Below are positions 1 through 30,854 of a DNA stretch of 64,000 nt, piece by piece; position 1 is the first letter of the stretch, and each line of letters opens with the position of its first letter. The stretch comes from an uncultured bacterium (GTDB taxonomy: Bacteria > Babelota > Babeliae > Babelales > Vermiphilaceae), in contig OY969561.1 in NCBI GenBank assembly GCA_963701085.1, forward strand, positions 1,088,001 to 1,152,000, read 5' to 3'. A model generated the notes under the pieces. The model saw only the letters and a list, made by a program, of their open reading frames with translations. It searched no databases and was not told where the DNA came from. Made by a program: the position numbers and the translations under genes.

Positions 1-104
1 TTCGACAGGCTCACCACGAACGGGTTTTTAAGAATTCAATTTCCCGTTCGCACTGCCTGTCCTTCGTAGCTTTAGCGAAGTAGGGAGCTTGTCGAAGTGA
101 GCGA
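1..104. repeat. Family-A inverted pair (truncated at window edge) with a 30-nt family-B unit (56-85) nested in the right arm
   Basis: ttcgacaggctcaccacgaacggg (1-24) is an imperfect inverse of cccgttcgcactg|agcttgtcgaag once 56-85 is removed. Confidence 0.8.
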
Positions 105-3116: not shown

Positions 3117-3299
3117 AATATTCTCATTATTTAATGTATGTGTCCTTATTATTAGCGTATATTTATTTTCTATTTTCGCAAATGGGGTCTCAAAAAGCCT
3201 TGTTAATGCTGTTTTTATGGGAAAATGGCTGTATACTGAGGGTATATAGGGATTTTTGGGGGGTTAAAAAGTTCCATTTCTTGTTAAATGTTCTTTCCT

Positions 3300-3693
3300 C
3301 GCGCTCGTCCTGAGTTTGTCGAAGGATATCTTCGAGCGCAGTATTAAGAGTTAAATATGCAAAATTACTTTTATCTGTATATTTTAAAATGTGTTAATGG
3401 TGCCTATTATGTAGGGCATACAGATAATATTGAACAGCGTCTGTCAGAGCATCATTTGGGTGTAATTAGTAATTGTTATACAAAAAATAAAAGACCTTTA
3501 GAGCTTGTGTTCCTACAGGATTTTCCTACAAGGGATGCTGCATTTCATGCAGAGCGCCAAGTTAAAGGATGGTCTCGTAAGAAAAAAGAAGCATTGATGA
3601 GAAGCGATTGGGAAGAAATAAGACAATTAAATGTTTTACATAAGAAACAAAGATCGCTCGAGGATATCCTTCGACAAACTCAGGACGAGCGCG
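3300..3693 (+). mobile_element. GIY-YIG cassette 1 bounded by inverted family-A repeats
   Basis: 3300-3338 and 3655-3693 are inverted repeats matching at 38/39 nt. Confidence 0.8.
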
Positions 3694-3704
3694 GGGAAGA
3701 ATAG
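3357..3704 (+). CDS. Small GIY-YIG endonuclease (UPF0213-like), copy 1; C-terminus reads through the right repeat
   Basis: YLYILKC..GAYYVGHT..R..EH, YTK..RP and AERQVKGWSRKKKEAL motifs. Confidence 0.92.
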   Translation: MQNYFYLYILKCVNGAYYVGHTDNIEQRLSEHHLGVISNCYTKNKRPLELVFLQDFPTRDAAFHAERQVKGWSRKKKEALMRSDWEEIRQLNVLHKKQRSLEDILRQTQDERGEE

Positions 3705-3742
3705 GATTTGTTTGTTGAAGAATTAGAATAATATGGAAAAGT

Positions 3743-5436: not shown

Positions 5437-5550
5437 ATGAGCAGTAGATTTGCTAAGGATTTAAAGGCATCGCTTAAAGAAGCTATTGCCTATGAGAAAG
5501 CTGGCCTGCCAGCCGTAGCTTTACGCGAAATAAATAATTTTGATTTTTAG
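5437..5550 (+). pseudogene. Probable N-terminal remnant of an HTH antitoxin-like gene, ending in a family-B repeat
   Basis: ggag RBS; MSSRFAKDLKASLKEAIAYEK then repeat-derived codons and TAG. Confidence 0.5.
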
Positions 5551-5671
5551 TCTGCCCGCCGTCGCTAAAGCTATGGCGGACAGCTTTCGCCATTTATTGT
5601 AAGTATTTTTTTTGAATTTGTATCCAACCTTTAAAAAAGCTGGCTTGCCAGCCGTAGCTTTACGCGAAGGC

Positions 5672-5674
<3 letters not shown>
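5497..5674. repeat. Three family-B hairpins adjoining the tRNA-Arg 3' end
   Basis: 33-nt direct repeat 5497-5529 / 5636-5668 (1 mismatch); inverted copy at about 5553-5583. Confidence 0.8.
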
Positions 5675-5748
<74 letters not shown>

Positions 5749-14748: not shown

Positions 14749-14814
14749 GCGATCAGATCTTTTTTGTAAAGAGTGAATATAATAATATGGTATCTATCAA
14801 AGTAGATTATGTCC

Positions 14815-15222
14815 TTCCCGCGCTCGTCCTGAACTTGTTGAAGGATGTCCTAGAGCGCTCTTAATAGAGATAATAAATATGCAAAATCATTTTTACATGT
14901 ACATTTTAAAATGCATAAATGGTGCATATTATGTTGGACATACAGATAATATTGATAAAAGAATGTCCGAACATAATTTAGGTTTAATTAGTGGTTGTTA
15001 TACTAAAAATAAATGGCCCCTAGAGCTTGTGTGTCTTGAAGTTTTTTCAACGAGAGATGATGCATTTCATGCGGAGAGACAAGTTAAAGGTTGGTCGCGC
15101 AAGAAAAAAGAAGCTTTTATACAAAATGATTGGGACAAAATTAAAAAACTTAATTTTTTACAAAAATAATGATGGGGAGCGCTCGAGGACATCCTTCAAC
15201 AAGTTCAGGACGAGCGCGGGAA
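14815..15222 (+). mobile_element. GIY-YIG cassette 2 bounded by inverted family-A repeats
   Basis: 14815-14860 and 15177-15222 are inverted repeats matching at 45/46 nt. Confidence 0.85.
14879..15169 (+). CDS. Small GIY-YIG endonuclease, copy 2
   Basis: About 74% identical to 3357-3704 over 96 aa (counted by eye). Confidence 0.92.
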   Translation: MQNHFYMYILKCINGAYYVGHTDNIDKRMSEHNLGLISGCYTKNKWPLELVCLEVFSTRDDAFHAERQVKGWSRKKKEAFIQNDWDKIKKLNFLQK

Positions 15223-15245
15223 AGCAAGAATAATTTGAGGTAACC

Positions 15246-16540: not shown

Positions 16541-18094
16541 TTATAATTCCAGTTTTTTTTGAGAATAGAGTGTATCAAAATGTTGATTTACTTTATTTTC
16601 ACTCTCATATTTCAATAATGCAGTACCCTCGAATAATTCTTTAAATTCTGCAAATGCATAACGATTTTCATCAAACAGAGAGTTGTTGCACAATGAATCA
16701 TGTACAGCAGCAATATCAAGTTCTTTTATTACCGTATAGGCTTGGTATTGTGTAGCTGTTGGGGTTGTTTTTGTAAGCCGTGCGTTGTTATATTTTTTTA
16801 CTAATGTGCAAAAAAGAGAAATATATTGTCTTATATTTTCAGGAGAGTGTTTTGAATCAAAAAACCTACAAAATAGCTCTTTAATTGATGGAAATGATTC
16901 AAATCCAATAATGTTAGCAGCAAGATCATCCTCATTAATTATATCTCGCGCGTTTTTTGCTTTATCAATCATTTGTATAAGATGGTAGAGATCATAGGTG
17001 GTGCCATTGTGGAGTAACAGATCATAAGCATGAGTGTAAAATTCATTTTTAAAATCTACGTAAGAACCTTGTGAATAATCCTGTAATAGTATGCCGTCAT
17101 TTTCATACAAATAAGTCGTGAAAATATTTACAGATCCAATATCAAGCTCTTGCATAGCATGCCGTAAAGCGCAGGTGAGTTGAAAAAAGGCTGGATATGT
17201 TAAGAAGTCATTATGTGTATGTGTTGTATTCGTAACAGTCTGTTCGTTTGTATCAGATGGTGCAGTGAGGATGTCTTTAAGGCGGGTTTTTTTTGCACCA
17301 AAGTGAAGAGGTGGTTGTTCACCTGTTTCACGTACCGTTAGGTTGTATTTTTTTAAAAGACTGAAAAAAAGAGGGTAGAATGGGGTCATATCAATATCAT
17401 TAATAGTCAAAATTCCTTTTTTATTATACGCAAACCGCCCCATACTATCTTCATGTATACCGCTATTTCTTGCCTCATTCATATGTTGGATTAAGCGAAC
17501 AAGTTTTTTATTTTGATATTTTTGCTCAAGTCGTTTTCCATATTCACCACAGACAATACGGCAAGATTCATTGTACAGTGATTGCATCATATTTTCATCA
17601 GGTCGTAAGGAGTTGGTGAGTAAAAGTGGCTTTTGCACGGATGTGCCCTTCGTAGCCTTGGCGAAGTAGGGTTCTTGCTCAGTAGATTTACTCTGTTTTT
17701 TGTAGACGGGGGTAAGAAGTTGAGCCTCATTAGTAGTTGCCACTGGTTGGTCACGTTTATAGGTCATATCCATGACTTTATTATATAGTGGCCAATTTGT
17801 ATTGACGATTTGATCATAGGTTTGTTGTTTATTTACGTCTGGCTGCACATTGGTATGTATGGGTTGGGAATAGGGGTTTGGGTCAAAAATAACCAAAGGA
17901 TGTCCTGTTGGGGTGATACAGGGCCAGTTGCGTTCATATGTCATATTTGTAAAACGTTCCCAACCAAGCTCATTTGCTTTGAACACAGGCACATTTTGTG
18001 GCGCAGGATGATGAATTTTGGGACGTTCTCGTTCCATGCATGAGGTGGTGAGAGTAGTGATGGTCAGAAATAAAGAGAGATATATTTTTTTCAT
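16541..18094 (-). CDS. Secreted orphan protein, paralogue 1 of 3; family-B unit in-frame at 17642-17671
   Basis: Shared motifs MTYKRDQ, EDSMG, KKYNN, DSLCNNSLF. Confidence 0.85.
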   Translation of the reverse strand: MKKIYLSLFLTITTLTTSCMERERPKIHHPAPQNVPVFKANELGWERFTNMTYERNWPCITPTGHPLVIFDPNPYSQPIHTNVQPDVNKQQTYDQIVNTNWPLYNKVMDMTYKRDQPVATTNEAQLLTPVYKKQSKSTEQEPYFAKATKGTSVQKPLLLTNSLRPDENMMQSLYNESCRIVCGEYGKRLEQKYQNKKLVRLIQHMNEARNSGIHEDSMGRFAYNKKGILTINDIDMTPFYPLFFSLLKKYNLTVRETGEQPPLHFGAKKTRLKDILTAPSDTNEQTVTNTTHTHNDFLTYPAFFQLTCALRHAMQELDIGSVNIFTTYLYENDGILLQDYSQGSYVDFKNEFYTHAYDLLLHNGTTYDLYHLIQMIDKAKNARDIINEDDLAANIIGFESFPSIKELFCRFFDSKHSPENIRQYISLFCTLVKKYNNARLTKTTPTATQYQAYTVIKELDIAAVHDSLCNNSLFDENRYAFAEFKELFEGTALLKYESENKVNQHFDTLYSQKKLEL

Positions 18095-18097
18095 AGG

Positions 18098-19639
18098 TTA
18101 TTTCCTTGGAGGATAAAATTGATCAATACATTCCTGTATATTTTCGTCAGAAGAGTTAGTTAATATTCTTATATTATCAATTAATTCTTTAAATTCATCA
18201 AATGCATATATTGTTTTGTTGAACAGCGTATTATCACATGAATCAGGTAAGGCAAAATCGGAGTTATAATAGCGGAATTCGTTATAAGCTTCGAATTGAT
18301 TATATGTTGGTGTTTTTTTATCTTTTCGTTGATTATTGTATTTTTTTATGAGAAGGCAAAGAATACCAATAAGTTTTTTTGTGTAAAATGTATTATGAAT
18401 TTTTCCTGCGACAGGGCTTAAGAATGTAAAAAGTTTTTCTGTTGCTGTTAGTTCTGATTCAATAATATCATAGCCAAAATCATATTCTTGTTTTTCAGGA
18501 ATTAATGTTGTTCCGGCTTCGATTATTTTTATTACATCATACAGGCGGCTATTTATTGACCCTTGAAATTCTTTTTCATATATGGTGAGCAAGACTATAG
18601 GGTATGTCAGTTTATAAAACTTATCTTTTAAATTAGCATATGATAATGGTAAGTAATCATTTTGTGGAATTTCTTTGTTTGAATAGACATAAAAAAGAAA
18701 ATTCTTCATCATGCCGTTTCTGTGTTGCTTACTTGCATACGATTCTAAATTATAAAATGCAGGATAGTTACGGCATACTGATACAGGGTCATATGCATAA
18801 TTGATTTTGTTTGTGTTGGCAGAAGATGGAAGGTCAAGAATTTTGGCAAGTCGGTTGTTAGTTGTTTGGGTTGATGATAACTCATTATTATTTGGAAGAG
18901 GTTCCTTTGTGTTGTTGACCGTCAGGTTATAGTGTTTTAAATAACCAAAAAAAAGCACCATTTTTTCTTCTAATCCTTCTTGGTTATCCAGCCATTTATC
19001 ATATGAATATTTTCCCATAACATCTTCGTCTATATTTTTATTCTTTGCAGTATTCATATCAGTAATCAAAGTTATAAGAGTTTTTGTAGAAGGGTTTTTA
19101 ATAATAGTGAATGCATTATCATATAATTGTTGCATATCAGTATTAGGTTGCACCTGAGGCTTTGTTAGCAACAAAGTCTTTTTTTCGCGCGTTCTTTTTG
19201 ACGTGTGCTTGTCCGCCGTAGTTTTACCGTGTCCTCCGATCTGTCCTCCGTAGCCTTCGGCGAAGGATGGAACGAAGGAGGATAAAGAAGTGTAGGTAGA
19301 GGTTGTGTTGTCTTCAGGTACTGTTTGTACGTAGACGGGAACAAGAAGATCATTTGCATTGGTAGATACCACCGGTTGGTCATGTTTATAGGTCATATCC
19401 ATGATTTCATTATATTTTTGCCAATTTGTATCGACGATTCGTTTATAGGTTTGTTGATTATTTACTATGTCTGGCTGCGTATTGGTATGTATGGGTTGGG
19501 GGAGGAATGGGGTTTGGCTAAAAATAGTTAAAGGGAATCCTGTTAGATTGGTGGTACAGGGCCAGTGGCGTTGTTGTTCCATGCATGAGGTGGTGAGAGT
19601 AGTGATGGTCAGAAATAAAGAGAGATACATTTTTTTCAT
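18098..19639 (-). CDS. Secreted orphan protein, paralogue 2 of 3; nested family-B composite in-frame at about 19208-19296
   Basis: Signal peptide nearly identical to paralogue 1; C-terminal half similar to paralogue 3. Confidence 0.85.
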   Translation of the reverse strand: MKKMYLSLFLTITTLTTSCMEQQRHWPCTTNLTGFPLTIFSQTPFLPQPIHTNTQPDIVNNQQTYKRIVDTNWQKYNEIMDMTYKHDQPVVSTNANDLLVPVYVQTVPEDNTTSTYTSLSSFVPSFAEGYGGQIGGHGKTTADKHTSKRTREKKTLLLTKPQVQPNTDMQQLYDNAFTIIKNPSTKTLITLITDMNTAKNKNIDEDVMGKYSYDKWLDNQEGLEEKMVLFFGYLKHYNLTVNNTKEPLPNNNELSSTQTTNNRLAKILDLPSSANTNKINYAYDPVSVCRNYPAFYNLESYASKQHRNGMMKNFLFYVYSNKEIPQNDYLPLSYANLKDKFYKLTYPIVLLTIYEKEFQGSINSRLYDVIKIIEAGTTLIPEKQEYDFGYDIIESELTATEKLFTFLSPVAGKIHNTFYTKKLIGILCLLIKKYNNQRKDKKTPTYNQFEAYNEFRYYNSDFALPDSCDNTLFNKTIYAFDEFKELIDNIRILTNSSDENIQECIDQFYPPRK

Positions 19640-19643
19640 AATG

Positions 19644-21008
19644 TTATTTCCTTGGAGGATAAAGGTGATCAATACATTCCTGTATATTTTCGTCAGAAGA
19701 CCGAGCTAATATTGTTATATGATTAACTAACTCTGTAAATTCATCAAGTGCATATATTTCTTTGTTGAACACCGTATTATCACATGAATCAGGTAAGGCA
19801 AAATTGGAGTTACAATAGCGGAATTCGTTATAAGCTTTGAATTGAGTATATGTTGGTGTTATTTTATCTTTTCGTTGATTATTGTATTTTTTTATGAGAT
19901 GGCAAAGAATACCAATACGTTTTTTTGCACGATGCGGATTATCGTCTAGTTTTATGATGCTTAACAATATAAAAAGTCCTTCTTCTGTTGTTAGCTCTGA
20001 TTCAATAATATCATAACCAAAATCATATTCTTGTTTTTTAGGAATTGATGTTATTCCGGCTTCGATTATTTTTATTAAATCATACAGGTAGATACCTACT
20101 GTTTCTTGATATTCTGCATATTTTGTGTAGCAGATCACACAAGATGCCAGCTCATAAAACTTATCTTTTAAATCAGCATATGATAATTGTGAGTAATTGT
20201 TTTGTGGGATTTCTTTGTTTGAATAGACATAAGAAATAAAAGTCTTCATTAAGCCGTTATAGGGCTTCATACTTGCATACGATTCTAAATTATAAAATGC
20301 ATGATAGTTATGGCATACTGATTCATGGTCGTATATATAATAGGTTTTGCTTGTGTTAGCAGAAGATGGAAGGTCAAGGATTTTGGCAAGTTGGTTGTTA
20401 GTTTTTGGTGTTAATTTTTTTTTGTATAACTCATTATTATTTGGAAGAAGTTCTTTTGTGTTGTTGACCGTCAGGTTATAGCGTTTTAAATAACCAAAAA
20501 AAAGCACCATTTTTTCTTCTGATGCCTCTTGTTTGTCCAGCCATTTATCATATGAATATTTCCCCATAACATCTTCATCTATATTTTTATTCTTTGCATC
20601 ATTCATATCAGTAATTAAAGTAATCAGAGTTTTTGTAGAAAGGTTTTTAATAACAGTGAATACATTATCATACAATTGTTGTATATCGGTATGAGGTTGC
20701 ACGGGAATAAGGGTGCGTAAAAATGGCTTTGTTTCTTCTTTTTCACATTGTTTTTTTGTTAGGGCCGTATTATTTGTATGCATTGGGCGGTAGATGGGTG
20801 TAAGTTCAATTTCATTGATAGCAATTGTTTGGTCGCGTTTATAGGTCATATTCATAATGTTATCTAGATATTTCTCGTTAGTATCATATGCCTCGCACAC
20901 AGGTATATTTTGTGGCACAGGATGATGAATCTTGGGGCGTTCTCGTTCCATGCATGAGGTTGATACAATATGGGTTGCGAGTAATAAAAAAGCAGATATT
21001 TTTTTCAT
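19644..21008 (-). CDS. Secreted orphan protein, paralogue 3 of 3 (no repeat insert)
   Basis: MERERPKIHHP shared with paralogue 1; C-terminal YPPRK shared with paralogue 2. Confidence 0.85.
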   Translation of the reverse strand: MKKISAFLLLATHIVSTSCMERERPKIHHPVPQNIPVCEAYDTNEKYLDNIMNMTYKRDQTIAINEIELTPIYRPMHTNNTALTKKQCEKEETKPFLRTLIPVQPHTDIQQLYDNVFTVIKNLSTKTLITLITDMNDAKNKNIDEDVMGKYSYDKWLDKQEASEEKMVLFFGYLKRYNLTVNNTKELLPNNNELYKKKLTPKTNNQLAKILDLPSSANTSKTYYIYDHESVCHNYHAFYNLESYASMKPYNGLMKTFISYVYSNKEIPQNNYSQLSYADLKDKFYELASCVICYTKYAEYQETVGIYLYDLIKIIEAGITSIPKKQEYDFGYDIIESELTTEEGLFILLSIIKLDDNPHRAKKRIGILCHLIKKYNNQRKDKITPTYTQFKAYNEFRYCNSNFALPDSCDNTVFNKEIYALDEFTELVNHITILARSSDENIQECIDHLYPPRK

Positions 21009-21167
21009 GCGATAATTCCTTGAAGGCATAATTAATGGTCATAGCATTGCATATTTTATAGCATGAATGAGTACGATCGTCCATGGGTGTTTTTTTGTGT
21101 ACTTGACTCTTATCATTATAAAAATATATGTTTGGGAATAGATGAATTTAAAAAAAAGGAAGAGATT

Positions 21168-28682: not shown

Positions 28683-30854
28683 TTATGAGTTTAATCCCAT
28701 TTCTTGTAAGAACGCCTGTGCATTAGGTTCTCTACCCAAAAAATTATACAGTAATTCGTTCGGATCTTGTGCGCCACCTTTGCCAAGCACTTCTTTAATA
28801 TATTTTTGACCAATTTCAGGGTTGAGTAAACCATATTGTTTGATGGTTGCAAACAGATCAAGTGCAAATACTTTAGACCACAGGTAGCCATAATATTTTG
28901 CACTATAGCCGGTTAAGTGGCCAAATGAGGTGTAAAAGTGATTGTCTTCACAATATGCCATGTATGGCAACATTGTTGTGTACAATTGTTTCATAATTGC
29001 ATGAGGGTTTTTACCGTGCCCTCCGACCTGTCCTCCGGAGCCTTGGCGAAGGGGGAAGCTTTCAGCGAAGGATGGGTTTTCCCCATTTCCAAAATATGAT
29101 AGTGCAATGGAAGAAAGATATGTTTGGCGGGTGACAAAATAACCGGTTGTTAAGTTTTTGAGTTGAATTATTGTATCAATTATATCATCAGGCAACGGTT
29201 GCCCGGTGATATAATGTTTGCTTACTTTTTTTAAGATATCCTTATCATGCAACCATTCTTCCAGCATTTGTGAGGGTAGTTCTACAAAATCAGTTTTTGT
29301 ATGTGTTCCTGATAATGATGCGATTGAAGTAGCTCCTAAAACCGCATGAAGTGCATGGCCAAATTCGTGGAAAAATGTTTGAACTTCAGCGCGTTTGAGC
29401 AGTGAAGGCTTACCATCAGTTGCCTTGGAGAAATTAGCAATGACAATTGATACATCAGGAATGCGGGTGCCATCAGCTTTGTATGTTGACGGAATAATAG
29501 TGGTATGTGCCGCATGGCTGTATTTATTGGGGCGAGGATAAAGATCAAGTAAGAGTGTGCCGAGTAATACGTTACCTGCTTTATCAAGTACGCGTACAGC
29601 GGTTACCTCTTTGTGCCACAATCCGCTTACCGGAACTTCCTGAAATTCAATACTGAAAAATTGACGGTAAACATCAAGTAATTCATTAATGGTGTTTTGC
29701 ATAGGGAAGTACTCAGCTATTTTTTGTTCATCAAGATTGAAGTTATTTTTTTTATAACTGTTTTCAAGATATGCAAAATCCCATGGTTGAATTTTACCGT
29801 TCTGCGTTAACTCAACTGATGGAGGTAATGTTTGAGTAAGCGTTGCCATTTCCGCTTGAACTTTTGCCAATGATTTTTGTGCTAAATCAGCAATAAAAGC
29901 GTGTGCTTTCTGCGGCGTATGAGCCATTTGATCATCAATATCACAATGAGCAAAATCACTGTATCCAAGGAGTTGTGCAAGTTCATCACGCTTGGTGATA
30001 ATTGTTGTGAGTAACGCATCGTTGACAGGATATGCACGATTGTTAAATGCAATGTATAGTTTTTTACGTGTTTGCGGAACTGAGCAATTTTCCATAACTC
30101 TAAAGTATGTTGGGTAATCTACGCCAAGAGTATAGAACCCATCAGGTGTGGGCGTGAGTGTGTTTACAAAATCATTGTCTAAACCAGCAAGATCTTCACG
30201 TGTTACGGTAATTGAGCTATTATCTTGCGCTATATTGCGATCAAAATTTGCGCAGAGACTAGCTAATTCTTTGCGGAGTGCATTCACGAATGCTAATGTT
30301 TCATCAGGAAGTGATAAGCCTTCGCGTTTAAATGAGTTAATCGTATCGTTTACAAAATAACGTTGTTGTTTGGAAAGATTTTCATTTTCTATTGTTTGTG
30401 ATTCATATGCCATAAATGCATGATAAAGAGCTTTATTGCTTGTCACATTATCAACCCAAAAAGCTTGGATTCTTATAGAGGCATCATGCGCTGCATTGCG
30501 AATATTGGTATCTGGGCTCAGGAGCTCCAGTGCTTCATAGACCCGTTGTGCAATAGCAAGGTTAGATAATGAACACACTTCATCCAGTGGTCGTGCGGTA
30601 TTTGCATAAGTACGCTGATCATCAGGAACGGCAATAATAGCGGCAATAATGTTTTTTGCTTCATCAATATAGAGGGGTGTTTTTACCGCAATATCATCTG
30701 TGGTCAACGCGAAAAGAGAGATAATATCGGATGTATGGAATGCTTTGGTAATCATCTTTTTGTCCAATTCATTTGTTTTTGAGCAATAACTTAAGGTGGC
30801 TAAGAAAATAATCATTATGCCAAAAAAAAGTAAGCTCAACGAGTTTTGCTTCAT
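28683..30854 (-). CDS. M3 family oligopeptidase with in-frame nested family-B insert (29014-29076)
   Basis: FHEFGHALH, DFVELPSQMLE, YYGYLWS motifs. Confidence 0.95.
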   Translation of the reverse strand: MKQNSLSLLFFGIMIIFLATLSYCSKTNELDKKMITKAFHTSDIISLFALTTDDIAVKTPLYIDEAKNIIAAIIAVPDDQRTYANTARPLDEVCSLSNLAIAQRVYEALELLSPDTNIRNAAHDASIRIQAFWVDNVTSNKALYHAFMAYESQTIENENLSKQQRYFVNDTINSFKREGLSLPDETLAFVNALRKELASLCANFDRNIAQDNSSITVTREDLAGLDNDFVNTLTPTPDGFYTLGVDYPTYFRVMENCSVPQTRKKLYIAFNNRAYPVNDALLTTIITKRDELAQLLGYSDFAHCDIDDQMAHTPQKAHAFIADLAQKSLAKVQAEMATLTQTLPPSVELTQNGKIQPWDFAYLENSYKKNNFNLDEQKIAEYFPMQNTINELLDVYRQFFSIEFQEVPVSGLWHKEVTAVRVLDKAGNVLLGTLLLDLYPRPNKYSHAAHTTIIPSTYKADGTRIPDVSIVIANFSKATDGKPSLLKRAEVQTFFHEFGHALHAVLGATSIASLSGTHTKTDFVELPSQMLEEWLHDKDILKKVSKHYITGQPLPDDIIDTIIQLKNLTTGYFVTRQTYLSSIALSYFGNGENPSFAESFPLRQGSGGQVGGHGKNPHAIMKQLYTTMLPYMAYCEDNHFYTSFGHLTGYSAKYYGYLWSKVFALDLFATIKQYGLLNPEIGQKYIKEVLGKGGAQDPNELLYNFLGREPNAQAFLQEMGLNS

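Follow-up and report, generated by a model that had tools for sequence, protein, structure and literature searches.

Transposons of the IS200/IS605 type have hairpin ends, integrate into single-stranded DNA (ssDNA) beside a specific short sequence and leave no target duplication, and the repetitive extragenic palindromes (REPs) that are linked to a REP-associated tyrosine transposase (RAYT) carry a GTAG or GTGG head. Rickettsia palindromic elements (RPEs) are about 100-150 bp long and their families are lineage-restricted. GIY-YIG nucleases are hydrolytic and do not form a covalent intermediate. According to the portion of Chenal et al. (2025, Nat Commun; PMC11893778) used here, small GIY-YIG proteins of cd10448 (Ssn) bind oriented NTS/SRM hairpins only as ssDNA and cut beside them; the repeats flank the Ssn genes, the authors note a likeness to REP/RAYT, and single-strand transposons of the IS200/IS605 type are mentioned in the Discussion. 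Di Nocera et al. (2013; PMC3733652), in the part considered here, sorted REPs into GTAG and CGTC superfamilies, described the GTAG/GTGG head, and reported some REPs inside genes and CGTC REPs without a transposase; PMC3116915 and PMC2817692, likewise drawn on in part, are further references on REP/REPIN and RAYT. Here we report on family B, a 30-nt hairpin repeat in a stretch of 64,000 nt from an uncultured bacterium, which is called the window throughout. We read family B as a miniature element of the REP/SRM kind, a non-autonomous hairpin that is partnered by a small GIY-YIG nuclease, and we put the probability of this explanation as a whole at roughly 0.6.

The window corresponds to bases 1088001-1152000 of a single contig of 1,198,634 bp with 37% G+C (genome G000). 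Comparisons were made with 30 relatives with genome sizes of 0.8-1.7 Mb, with an 11-genome set of the genus for counts of the repeat core, and with two complete relatives, G006 and G007, for site-by-site analysis. The window is densely coding on both strands and contains one tRNA. At gathering threshold, Rfam matched only this tRNA over the window, so that family B is not a described RNA family.

A reading of the window made from its sequence alone (the sequence-only reading) had listed six 30-nt units at 56-85, 17642-17671, 29027-29056, 54631-54660, 56755-56784 and 59914-59943; all are present and fit its consensus. The 15-nt core GAAGCCTTGGCGAAG, with up to two mismatches, matched 60 times in the genome of 1.2 Mb (plus strand 41, minus strand 19) as against none in a Markov shuffle. 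Two of them, G000:82735 and 934633, look like chance, and those at 284765, 606077, 659944, 915318 and 1144773 are the second halves of nested pairs. A weight matrix built on 106 distinct units located 87-95 sites in the genome and none in the shuffled genome. Within the window it found the six listed units, 5555-5584 on the minus strand, 42415-42444 on the plus strand and a weak site at 49854-49883 on the plus strand; a further match at 56773-56802 is an overlap that represents the 3' half of a host unit.

The borders of the unit are discrete. Information content in G000 is confined to unit positions 1-30 and falls to zero right after position 30, while the 5' edge decays over a few bases because many copies share larger repeats or are nested. 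In a cross-phylum set, which was collected with a 20-nt pattern from one genome per species and comprises at least 122 loci with at least 123 copies, both edges are sharp: the 123 copies among the matches listed have 0.11 bits at position 0 versus 0.42 at position 1, and 0.62 bits at position 30 versus 0.08 at position 31. The borders were also assessed by an excision test that is independent of coding constraint, in which the unit was cut out, 10 + 10 flanking bases were joined and the resulting 20-mer was sought elsewhere in the genome with at most one mismatch. With exactly 30 nt excised, a 20-mer present elsewhere was restored in 12 cases among the 60 copies of G000 and in 6 cases among the 54 of G007; excision of 29, 31 or 33 nt did so for just 0-2 copies. 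Moving both edges to the left by 1 or 2 nt fitted equally well (12/60 and 10/60), moving them to the right gave 5 and 2. The unit had been described as exactly 30 nt long. Edges and excision test bear this out; it does not extend to some inserts in genes, which measure 33 nt (G007:898777 and the outer unit of the peptidase insert described below). The claim that removal of a nested unit restores the host hairpin proved correct at all three sites for which it was made (29026, 56754 and 55), and the host at 56743-56754/56785-56802 occurs six times uninterrupted as an exact 30-mer. Family B is thus confirmed as a real repeat family with a discrete unit of about 30 nt.

The unit opens with an unpaired 5' tail, C(C/G/T)TG, at positions 1-4, which has no inverted partner at the 3' end. 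Positions 5-10 form a stem with positions 25-30, and the stem encloses a conserved 14-nt loop, GAAGCCTTGGCGAA, at positions 11-24. The loop and G4 are nearly invariant. The stem sequence is variable, with compensating changes on both sides: 81% of the cells pair, compared to 64% with shuffled partners (maximum 69%) and 38-53% in shifted registers. Compensation is abundant in three pairs, i.e. 5/30 (C-G in 42 units, T-A in 42), 8/27 (T-A in 48, G-C in 32) and 9/26 (C-G in 36, A-T in 30). The stem is selected as a structure. By eye, the boxes CG(A/T)AG at positions 12 and 23 seemed to vary together as CGAAG...CGAAG or CGTAG...CGTAG, that is like with like and not as a base pair.

An insertion into a conserved gene of the window is found at 28683-30854 on the minus strand, in a Peptidase_M3 gene of 723 aa (PF01432, E 1.3e-114). 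The gene carries an in-frame insert of 63 nt (33 + 30 nt nested, 21 codons) that none of the 11 orthologues has. At 29027-29056 on the plus strand lies the inner B unit of 30 nt, CCTGTCCTCCGGAGCCTTGGCGAAGGGGGA, with a weight-matrix score of 44.3 and 6/6 stem pairs. It is nested at CCGA^AGC of an outer 33-nt B-like unit, of which the 5' part ACCGTGCCCTCCGA (29013-29026, plus strand) and the 3' part AGCTTTCAGCGAAGGATGG (29057-29075, plus strand) were delimited by comparison with the orthologues. The 21 added residues, PSFAESFPLRQGSGGQVGGHG, stand between ...GNGEN and KNPH... of the peptidase. The empty site has the coding-strand sequence GGGGAAAAC^AAAAAYCC, and no repeated flank surrounds the 63-nt insert. 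The span of 29014-29076 given by the sequence-only reading had the right length of 63 nt; the orthologues best place the insert one base to the left, at 29013-29075, and one orthologue permits both positions. The peptidase shares 63-78% identity with its counterparts in ten genomes of the same genus and 30-54% with those of the remaining relatives; for a genome titled 'Candidatus Babeliaceae bacterium' the value is 43%. These values suggest a place for the organism in the same order (Dependentiae). Contigs from four sequencing runs, which contained at most 0.18 of the sampled words, were short and of low depth, and none of them bridged 29013-29075. Several contigs of other organisms matched the unit alone, with loose ends at 29022-29027 and 29056-29061.

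Copies within open reading frames (ORFs) of at least 180 aa in G000, G006 and G007 were compared with the other two genomes in each case. The 66 copies gave 132 comparisons and 90 spanning alignments, 47 of which passed a filter for flank identity. The most frequent net length differences were 10 aa (12 comparisons) and 11 aa (8); five comparisons each gave 8 aa and 20-21 aa, and four gave 9 aa; values of 7, 12, 13 and 17 aa occurred once each, and five differences were negative, the other genome being longer. No difference was seen in four of the 47 comparisons, which involved two copies: the chance match G000:82735, and G007:369893, where length is equal in the three genomes. A strict filter at the nucleotide level kept 7 of the 90 pairs, with a gap of exactly 30 nt in four of them (three separate events) and of 33 nt in one. 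The other two gaps, 36 nt and 18 nt, were read as alignment artefacts caused by an A-run and a truncated nested pair, respectively. The clearest junction was obtained from G000:91113 versus G006, ...AAAAATAGG^30 nt^TGAAGG..., where flank and unit end share only GG. A protein of about 1140 aa provides a graded case: at the orthologous site G006 has no unit, G000 has one (89741) and G007 has two nested units (1352450/1352468), the second of which entered at CGA^AGC of the first. Presence and absence at orthologous sites of three genomes, including this series of zero, one and two units, uphold the earlier description of a very small mobile unit with precise ends, and we are confident that family B is an insertional mobile repeat.

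Of the 126 copies in the three genomes, 49 (39%) are located in ORFs conserved in another genome, one of these being a chance match, and 77 lie outside conserved ORFs. All six reading frames of the unit are open and all six are used. This agrees with the proposal that a length of 10 codons lets the unit persist in genes. The gene is read antisense to the unit for 39 of the in-gene copies, and 29 of the 49 are in a single frame that reads (S/P)xFAKASxD(R/K). Such a preference might be taken as a sign that family B is not mobile at all and represents a selected SFAKAS-like peptide motif or a local duplication. Yet this is already contradicted by the 77 of 126 copies outside conserved ORFs, by the use of six frames, by the covariation of the stem at the nucleotide level, by units in non-coding hairpin loops and by nested units that differ from their hosts, which leaves it barely credible. 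In our reading, the skew in frame usage results from a filter that passes tolerable peptides; a preference for one orientation is also possible. A 30-nt element can evidently sit in frame in essential genes (M3 peptidase, PriA) of a reduced genome. Units within genes matter for annotation because they create spurious peptides and length differences between orthologues, and they bear on how a load of repeats persists in small genomes.

The same figures bear on a function for the host. Family B might mainly be a host-useful signal, i.e. a mark for a single-strand nuclease that restricts or steers incoming or replicating ssDNA, as proposed for NTS and SsnA of Neisseria, and its number would then reflect selection over selfish spread. 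The Ssn/NTS precedent as given in the portion of PMC11893778 used here, the conservation of the loop across phyla, and a gene-linked hairpin fixed in position and orientation (see below) are in line with this. However, 39% of the copies reside in conserved genes at sites that differ between species, the copy number ranges from 0 to 61 within one genus, and units nest in each other. Insertion filtered by tolerance fits these data better than placement by function. We therefore consider a mainly host-serving signal unlikely, while both this and our preferred explanation can be partly true.

Next to the unit itself, the sites of insertion are informative. Nested copies are found at CGA^AG(C/T) and CTG^A(G/A)C, and those of one subfamily at CTTG^GCGA; these sites all belong to loops of other hairpins, and the nested units differ in sequence from the host units. 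In the cross-phylum set 10 of the 123 copies among the matches listed stand at CGA^AG(C/G), and several of these are inside NTS-like hairpins CGTCATT(CCCGCGA^...^AGGCGGG)AATCC. For insertions in unique coding sequence, that is the M3 peptidase site and the strict nucleotide-level events, no common target was found. Insertion had been said to proceed without target-site duplication. A duplication of fixed kind is indeed lacking, but identity of 1-2 nt at the junction is enriched. The base before the unit equals the last base of the unit in 73/126 copies (mean 47 and maximum 61 in 500 shuffles of the flanks), and two bases are identical in 26/126 (mean 15, maximum 25). The trend is alike in the listed cross-phylum copies and in a set of viral units. 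As the stem partner of position 5, position 30 is part of the element, and we therefore take the identity to mean that targets tend to end like the unit rather than that they are duplicated.

Junction identities above all of the 500 shuffles are also a feature to be expected if no dedicated enzyme is involved and the unit is copied from loop to loop by replication slippage or template switching at stalled forks, using microhomology of 1-3 nt. The many targets that are loops of related hairpins point in this direction, as does the hydrolytic GIY-YIG chemistry, which offers no joining step. On the other hand, boundaries are identical at 30 nt across phyla among the matches listed, the M3 peptidase site and G007:898777 lie in unique coding sequence without microhomology, and the unit has a strong positional link to one gene family. 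Enzyme-free copying is thus improbable.

The sequence-only reading had suggested a peel-and-paste mechanism, which would make family B a classical REP/REPIN moved by an HUH tyrosine transposase of the RAYT or IS200/IS605 type. Precise ends, absence of a fixed duplication, a hairpin with a conserved 5' tail and insertion into single-stranded loops are compatible with such an enzyme, and left flanks that tend to end like the unit resemble paired cleavage sites. Nevertheless, the Y1_Tnp profile (PF01797) had no match in the complete 1.2 Mb contig in spite of the 60-95 copies present; the same search was positive in 6 of 14 control genomes, with relatives and other phyla outside the search. Moreover, family B is devoid of the GTAG/GTGG head of RAYT-linked REPs. 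An HUH transposase is thus absent from the genome, and an element of this type is highly improbable. The statement that the window contains no cognate enzyme stands, as none of family B's lies there.

Six GIY-YIG matches were present in G000. Four are small genes, termed class 1, inside long palindromes of another repeat family, A; two of these genes are in the window. Among the class-1 proteins, P0003 shares 43% identity with a Bradyrhizobium GIY-YIG protein that lies among NTS-like repeats. Since one class-1 protein has this identity to an NTS-flanked protein, class 1 looks Ssn-like and appears to form an Ssn/SRM-type pair with family A. The two class-1 genes of the window, at 3278-3706 and 14797-15231 (about 96 aa), are each enclosed by the family-A palindrome GCGCTCGTCCTGA(A/G)(C/T)TTGT(T/C)GAAGGAT...ATCCTTC(A/G)ACAA...CAGGACGAGCGC.

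A fifth small gene codes for a single-domain GIY-YIG nuclease that we term class 2. It is the sole copy of this class in the genome and is located outside the window at G000:C1:843858-844097 on the minus strand. Its 80-aa product, P0002, did not yield a BLASTP alignment to the NTS-flanked Bradyrhizobium GIY-YIG, the one comparator used, and is 29% identical to P0003; both proteins are PF01541 according to Pfam. P0002 retains the family-invariant residues Y5, Y17, G19, R27, H31, N32 and E63. Among proteins of solved structure, SLX1 structure-specific nucleases matched it best (E 2.6e-6), and NCBIfam contained no model naming the protein.

A B-type hairpin precedes the class-2 gene by 20-75 nt in the same orientation as the gene. 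Nearly all class-2 homologues in the relatives have a GCGAAG leader and a B-type hairpin before the gene, sometimes with nested units. Counting fixed motifs, the hairpin arms were present within 130 nt upstream of 21/34 and the leader upstream of 20/34 class-2 genes, compared to 17/3749 and 6/3749, respectively, at control ORF starts of three genomes. Metagenome class-2 loci with enough upstream sequence had the arms in 43/72 cases and the B core, with up to three mismatches, in 25/72, in most instances 23 to 67 nt before the start codon. Among the 123 cores of the cross-phylum matches listed, three directly precede a class-2 N-terminus; the homologues, from three distant genomes, are 51-54% identical. 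Among the 30 relatives 14 had hairpin and gene, nine had neither, two had the gene alone and five had B alone. By position and by analogy to Ssn, the class-2 GIY-YIG protein is probably the cognate binding and cutting partner of family B.

A tRNA gene was noted about 100-250 nt upstream of the class-2 gene on the same strand in 30 of 60 metagenome loci (L314-L373); none was seen on the other strand or downstream. The anticodons of these tRNAs correspond to Ala, Glu, Val, Asp, Tyr, Leu, Ser, Met, Gln, Pro, Thr and Lys. In G000 a putative tRNA-Glu was recognized by eye upstream of the class-2 gene, around C1:844200.

The hairpin is widely distributed. Of the 11 genomes that represent the genus, 10 have the core; the copy number ranges from 0 to 61, and a reversed control gave 0-1 matches. 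The core was also detected in 19 of the 30 relatives. The cross-phylum loci listed come from genomes titled Acidobacteriota, Verrucomicrobia, Patescibacteria, Bacteroidetes, Planctomycetes, Bradyrhizobium, Babeliaceae and others. At least 5/6 stem pairs were formed in 113 of the 123 copies among these matches, positions 5-9 having been free in the search pattern. Viral contigs contributed 31 units in 30 contigs (L394-L423), all with at least 5/6 stem pairs. Thus the 30-nt hairpin is not special to this genome and is common to many phyla and to viral contigs. Phages may carry the unit between hosts. In the viral set the left flank ended with GGG in 8/31 units, and the right flank started with TCA in 8/31.

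How might the partners act together? By analogy to Ssn, the class-2 enzyme would recognize the folded B hairpin on ssDNA and cleave along its borders. Host functions or template switching would subsequently join copies to single-stranded sites that are exposed, the units often landing in the single-stranded loops of other hairpins (CGA^AG, CTG^AG) and also in unique coding sequence. We infer this transposition chemistry from the analogy; because GIY-YIG nucleases are hydrolytic without a covalent intermediate, peel-and-paste chemistry is not simply transferable. That the class-2 enzyme drives the spread of B is a tentative suggestion, and a somewhat doubtful one. Going further, B hairpin and class-2 gene could constitute a pan-bacterial ssDNA transposon system with a hydrolytic GIY-YIG nuclease, in place of an HUH or DDE enzyme, as its 'transposase' and a 30-nt passenger, in which the gene-linked copy homes just downstream of tRNA genes, solo hairpins enter loops and genes, and transfer between phyla is partly phage-borne. 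Such a passenger would, to our knowledge, be smaller than any described mobile DNA, and we regard the scheme in this extended form as rather unlikely.

Several observations weigh against the pairing of a mobile hairpin with the class-2 nuclease. GIY-YIG hydrolysis leaves the rejoining of the 30-nt piece unexplained. A search for genes flanked by inverted B units had been recommended. The class-2 gene does not conform to this, as its hairpin stands upstream alone and points the same way as the gene; the arms were seen upstream at 43/72 and downstream at 1/68 metagenome loci. Direct repeats that flank the class-2 gene were not longer than control in 88 loci, with the exception of L346, where the hairpin is repeated on both sides. 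With a one-sided hairpin and no excess of direct repeats the class-2 gene is unlike a two-ended insertion sequence. The upstream hairpin could be no more than an operator or transcript element of the gene. Stem types are common to several genomes and do not clearly track the single gene-linked copy of G000. Genome G008 contains 17 B cores and no class-2 match, whereas G012 and G014, the latter only 52% complete, have a class-2 gene and no core. As the genomes are kin, the tabulation of hairpin against gene overstates the association. The taxon list of the cross-phylum set is a sample and not a census. Folding as free DNA was weak for seven stretches (-0.9 to -5.8 kcal/mol, z -2.1 to +1.1 versus shuffles), and only 59914-59943 folded better than shuffles (z -2.1); consequently the case for a structure is carried by the covariation. 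Finally, the replication-strand bias, which in transposition of the IS200/IS605 type favours the lagging-strand template, is weak, at 33:27 in G000, 35:19 in G007 and 10:2 in G006, with an origin guessed from GC skew. In this respect we observed that the plus-strand GC skew is positive throughout 16000-60000 of the window, yet the ORFs there are mostly on the minus strand, so GC skew may be a poor guide to the replication origin in G000.

The remaining units of the window are inserted in diverse settings. The unit at 56-85 (plus strand) interrupts a palindrome of the family-A type at CTG^AGC and lies upstream of the gene for the small chain of ribonucleotide reductase. The unit at 17642-17671 (plus strand) lies within ORF 16541-18094 of the minus strand and reads PYFAKATKGTS in antisense. 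At 54631-54660 (plus strand) a unit lies within the PriA helicase gene (53017-55077, minus strand), with the antisense reading SYYAKASKDRQ; the linker of PriA that holds it is 11-13 residues shorter in G007 and G006. The plus-strand unit at 56755-56784 is nested at CCGA^AGC of another B-family unit (56743-56754 and 56785-56802), which is restored by removal of 30 nt. The unit at 59914-59943 (plus strand) is nested at CGA^AGT in the loop of a hairpin with the arms CCCCGATTGAAGCGA and AGTGAAAATTGGGG (59899-59913 and 59944-59957); this host hairpin has many uninterrupted paralogues and two further filled copies. A B-family unit of the subfamily CCTG(G/C)CCTCCGAAGCCTCGGCGAAGGACGG at 42415-42444 (plus strand) is part of a larger repeat within ORF 41302-42618 of the minus strand.

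On the minus strand, 5555-5584 is a B-type hairpin behind a GCGAAAG leader, about 90 nt downstream of tRNA-Arg(TCT). The leader is the same that precedes class-2 GIY-YIG genes elsewhere, and no GIY-YIG gene follows here. The surrounding region, 5493-5748 on the minus strand, consists of tRNA-Arg(TCT), a hairpin, and the GCGAAAG leader with the B-type hairpin; on either side of this segment, which measures about 107 nt, stands one copy, about 32 nt long, of TTCGCGTAAAGCTACGGCTGGCA(A/G)GCCAGCTTT. The segment may be what is left of a class-2 module that has been lost.

Other repeats were noticed as well. A separate hairpin family, GGGGACCCCGATTGGAACGAAGTGGAAATTGGGG, has many copies (e.g. G000:C1 308622, 670506, 781448 and 865508; 59899-59957 in the window), usually beside family-A arms, and three copies hold a B unit in the loop. 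A composite repeat, ...AG(C/G)AGTAAACACCCGCCTGGCCTCCGAAGCCTCGGCGAAGGACGGCTTGAAGG..., includes a B-family unit as a fixed part; it occurs at 42400-42450 and 56700-56810 of the window and at G000:C1 150851, 461299, 627292, 729510, 781518 and 1057929. In addition, neighbouring paralogous ORFs with 70-91% identity over hundreds of bases indicate tandem gene duplications at 16541-21029, 41302-43826 and 44015-49087.

In the literature, a string search for the core in both orientations returned one unrelated primer match, subscription journals being outside the search. Nothing relevant was found on palindromic repeats of Dependentiae, and among publications from 2023 onward on GIY-YIG proteins, hairpins and mobile DNA the Ssn paper alone was relevant. 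The B core is absent from the text-form supplements of that paper (PMC11893778), its PDF supplements being outside the search.

How does family B compare to the described systems? An origin as a miniature inverted-repeat transposable element, i.e. a cut-down DDE transposon, is not supported, since there is no fixed duplication and the 5' tail has no inverted 3' partner. With IS200/IS605 family B shares a hairpin end, precise ends and the lack of a fixed duplication, subject to the enriched 1-2 nt junction identity. It differs by the absence of a Y1 transposase from G000, by having one hairpin in place of two different ends, and by a loose choice of target, CGA^AG and CTG^AG plus unrelated sites. 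With the RPEs it has in common that a palindromic repeat is in frame in genes of a small-genome bacterium of the intracellular type and is read through (cited in the part of PMC3733652 considered). At 30 nt and with a distribution across phyla among the matches listed, family B is unrelated to them in size and sequence, and its in-frame insertion in conserved genes, including M3 peptidase and PriA, is a likeness of behaviour and not membership.

The resemblance to REP/REPIN extends to imperfect palindromes of 20-40 nt with a short conserved tag at one end, high copy number, nesting in palindromes and occasional in-frame positions in genes, as far as these are described in the part of PMC3733652 used. 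In contrast to those elements, family B has no HUH gene in G000, where PF01797 found no Y1 transposase, and its tag C(C/G/T)TG (positions 1-4 being C, C/G/T, T and G) is neither GTAG nor CGTC. The units are mostly single or nested and do not form inverted REPIN pairs.

The closest known system is that of the Ssn nucleases with their SRM/NTS hairpins, as it appears in the portion of PMC11893778 on which we rely. Ssn/SRM and B/class 2 have in common a single-domain GIY-YIG protein of about 80-95 aa, an oriented hairpin of 20-50 nt beside its gene, tens to hundreds of scattered copies, and an occurrence across phyla with enrichment in symbionts. The hairpin of family B does stand beside the nuclease gene, with arms within 130 nt upstream at 21/34 and 43/72 loci as opposed to 17/3749 control starts. 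The differences are as follows. P0002 did not align by BLASTP with the NTS-flanked Bradyrhizobium GIY-YIG and has 29% identity to the class-1 protein of its own genome. Compared by eye, family B departs from the SRM search motif HGTCWYN(0-2)YYVSBRH... in its first block, HGTCWY, where it has TGTCCT or TGCCC with a C at the W position. Its stem has 6 bp and its conserved loop 14 nt, whereas SRM/NTS hairpins have a long stem and a loop of 4-5 nt. The hairpin is on the upstream side only, while the Ssn paper gives repeats on both sides of 42% of the genes, and 39% of the B copies lie in genes as compared to 2% for NTS. Family B behaves like SRM and REP elements but is distinct from them in tag, hairpin architecture, one-sidedness and high share within genes, and apparently in the neighbouring protein clade. 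A conserved loop with a freely covarying stem would make it a clean substrate for studying the recognition of a DNA hairpin by a protein as small as about 80 residues. Should the pairing be real, the exact empty and filled sites would be the clearest natural evidence so far that hairpins of this kind move as discrete pieces and are not mere conserved signals, and next to Ssn there would be a second clade of small GIY-YIG nucleases with a hairpin of its own and thus a wider toolbox of site-specific ssDNA cutters.

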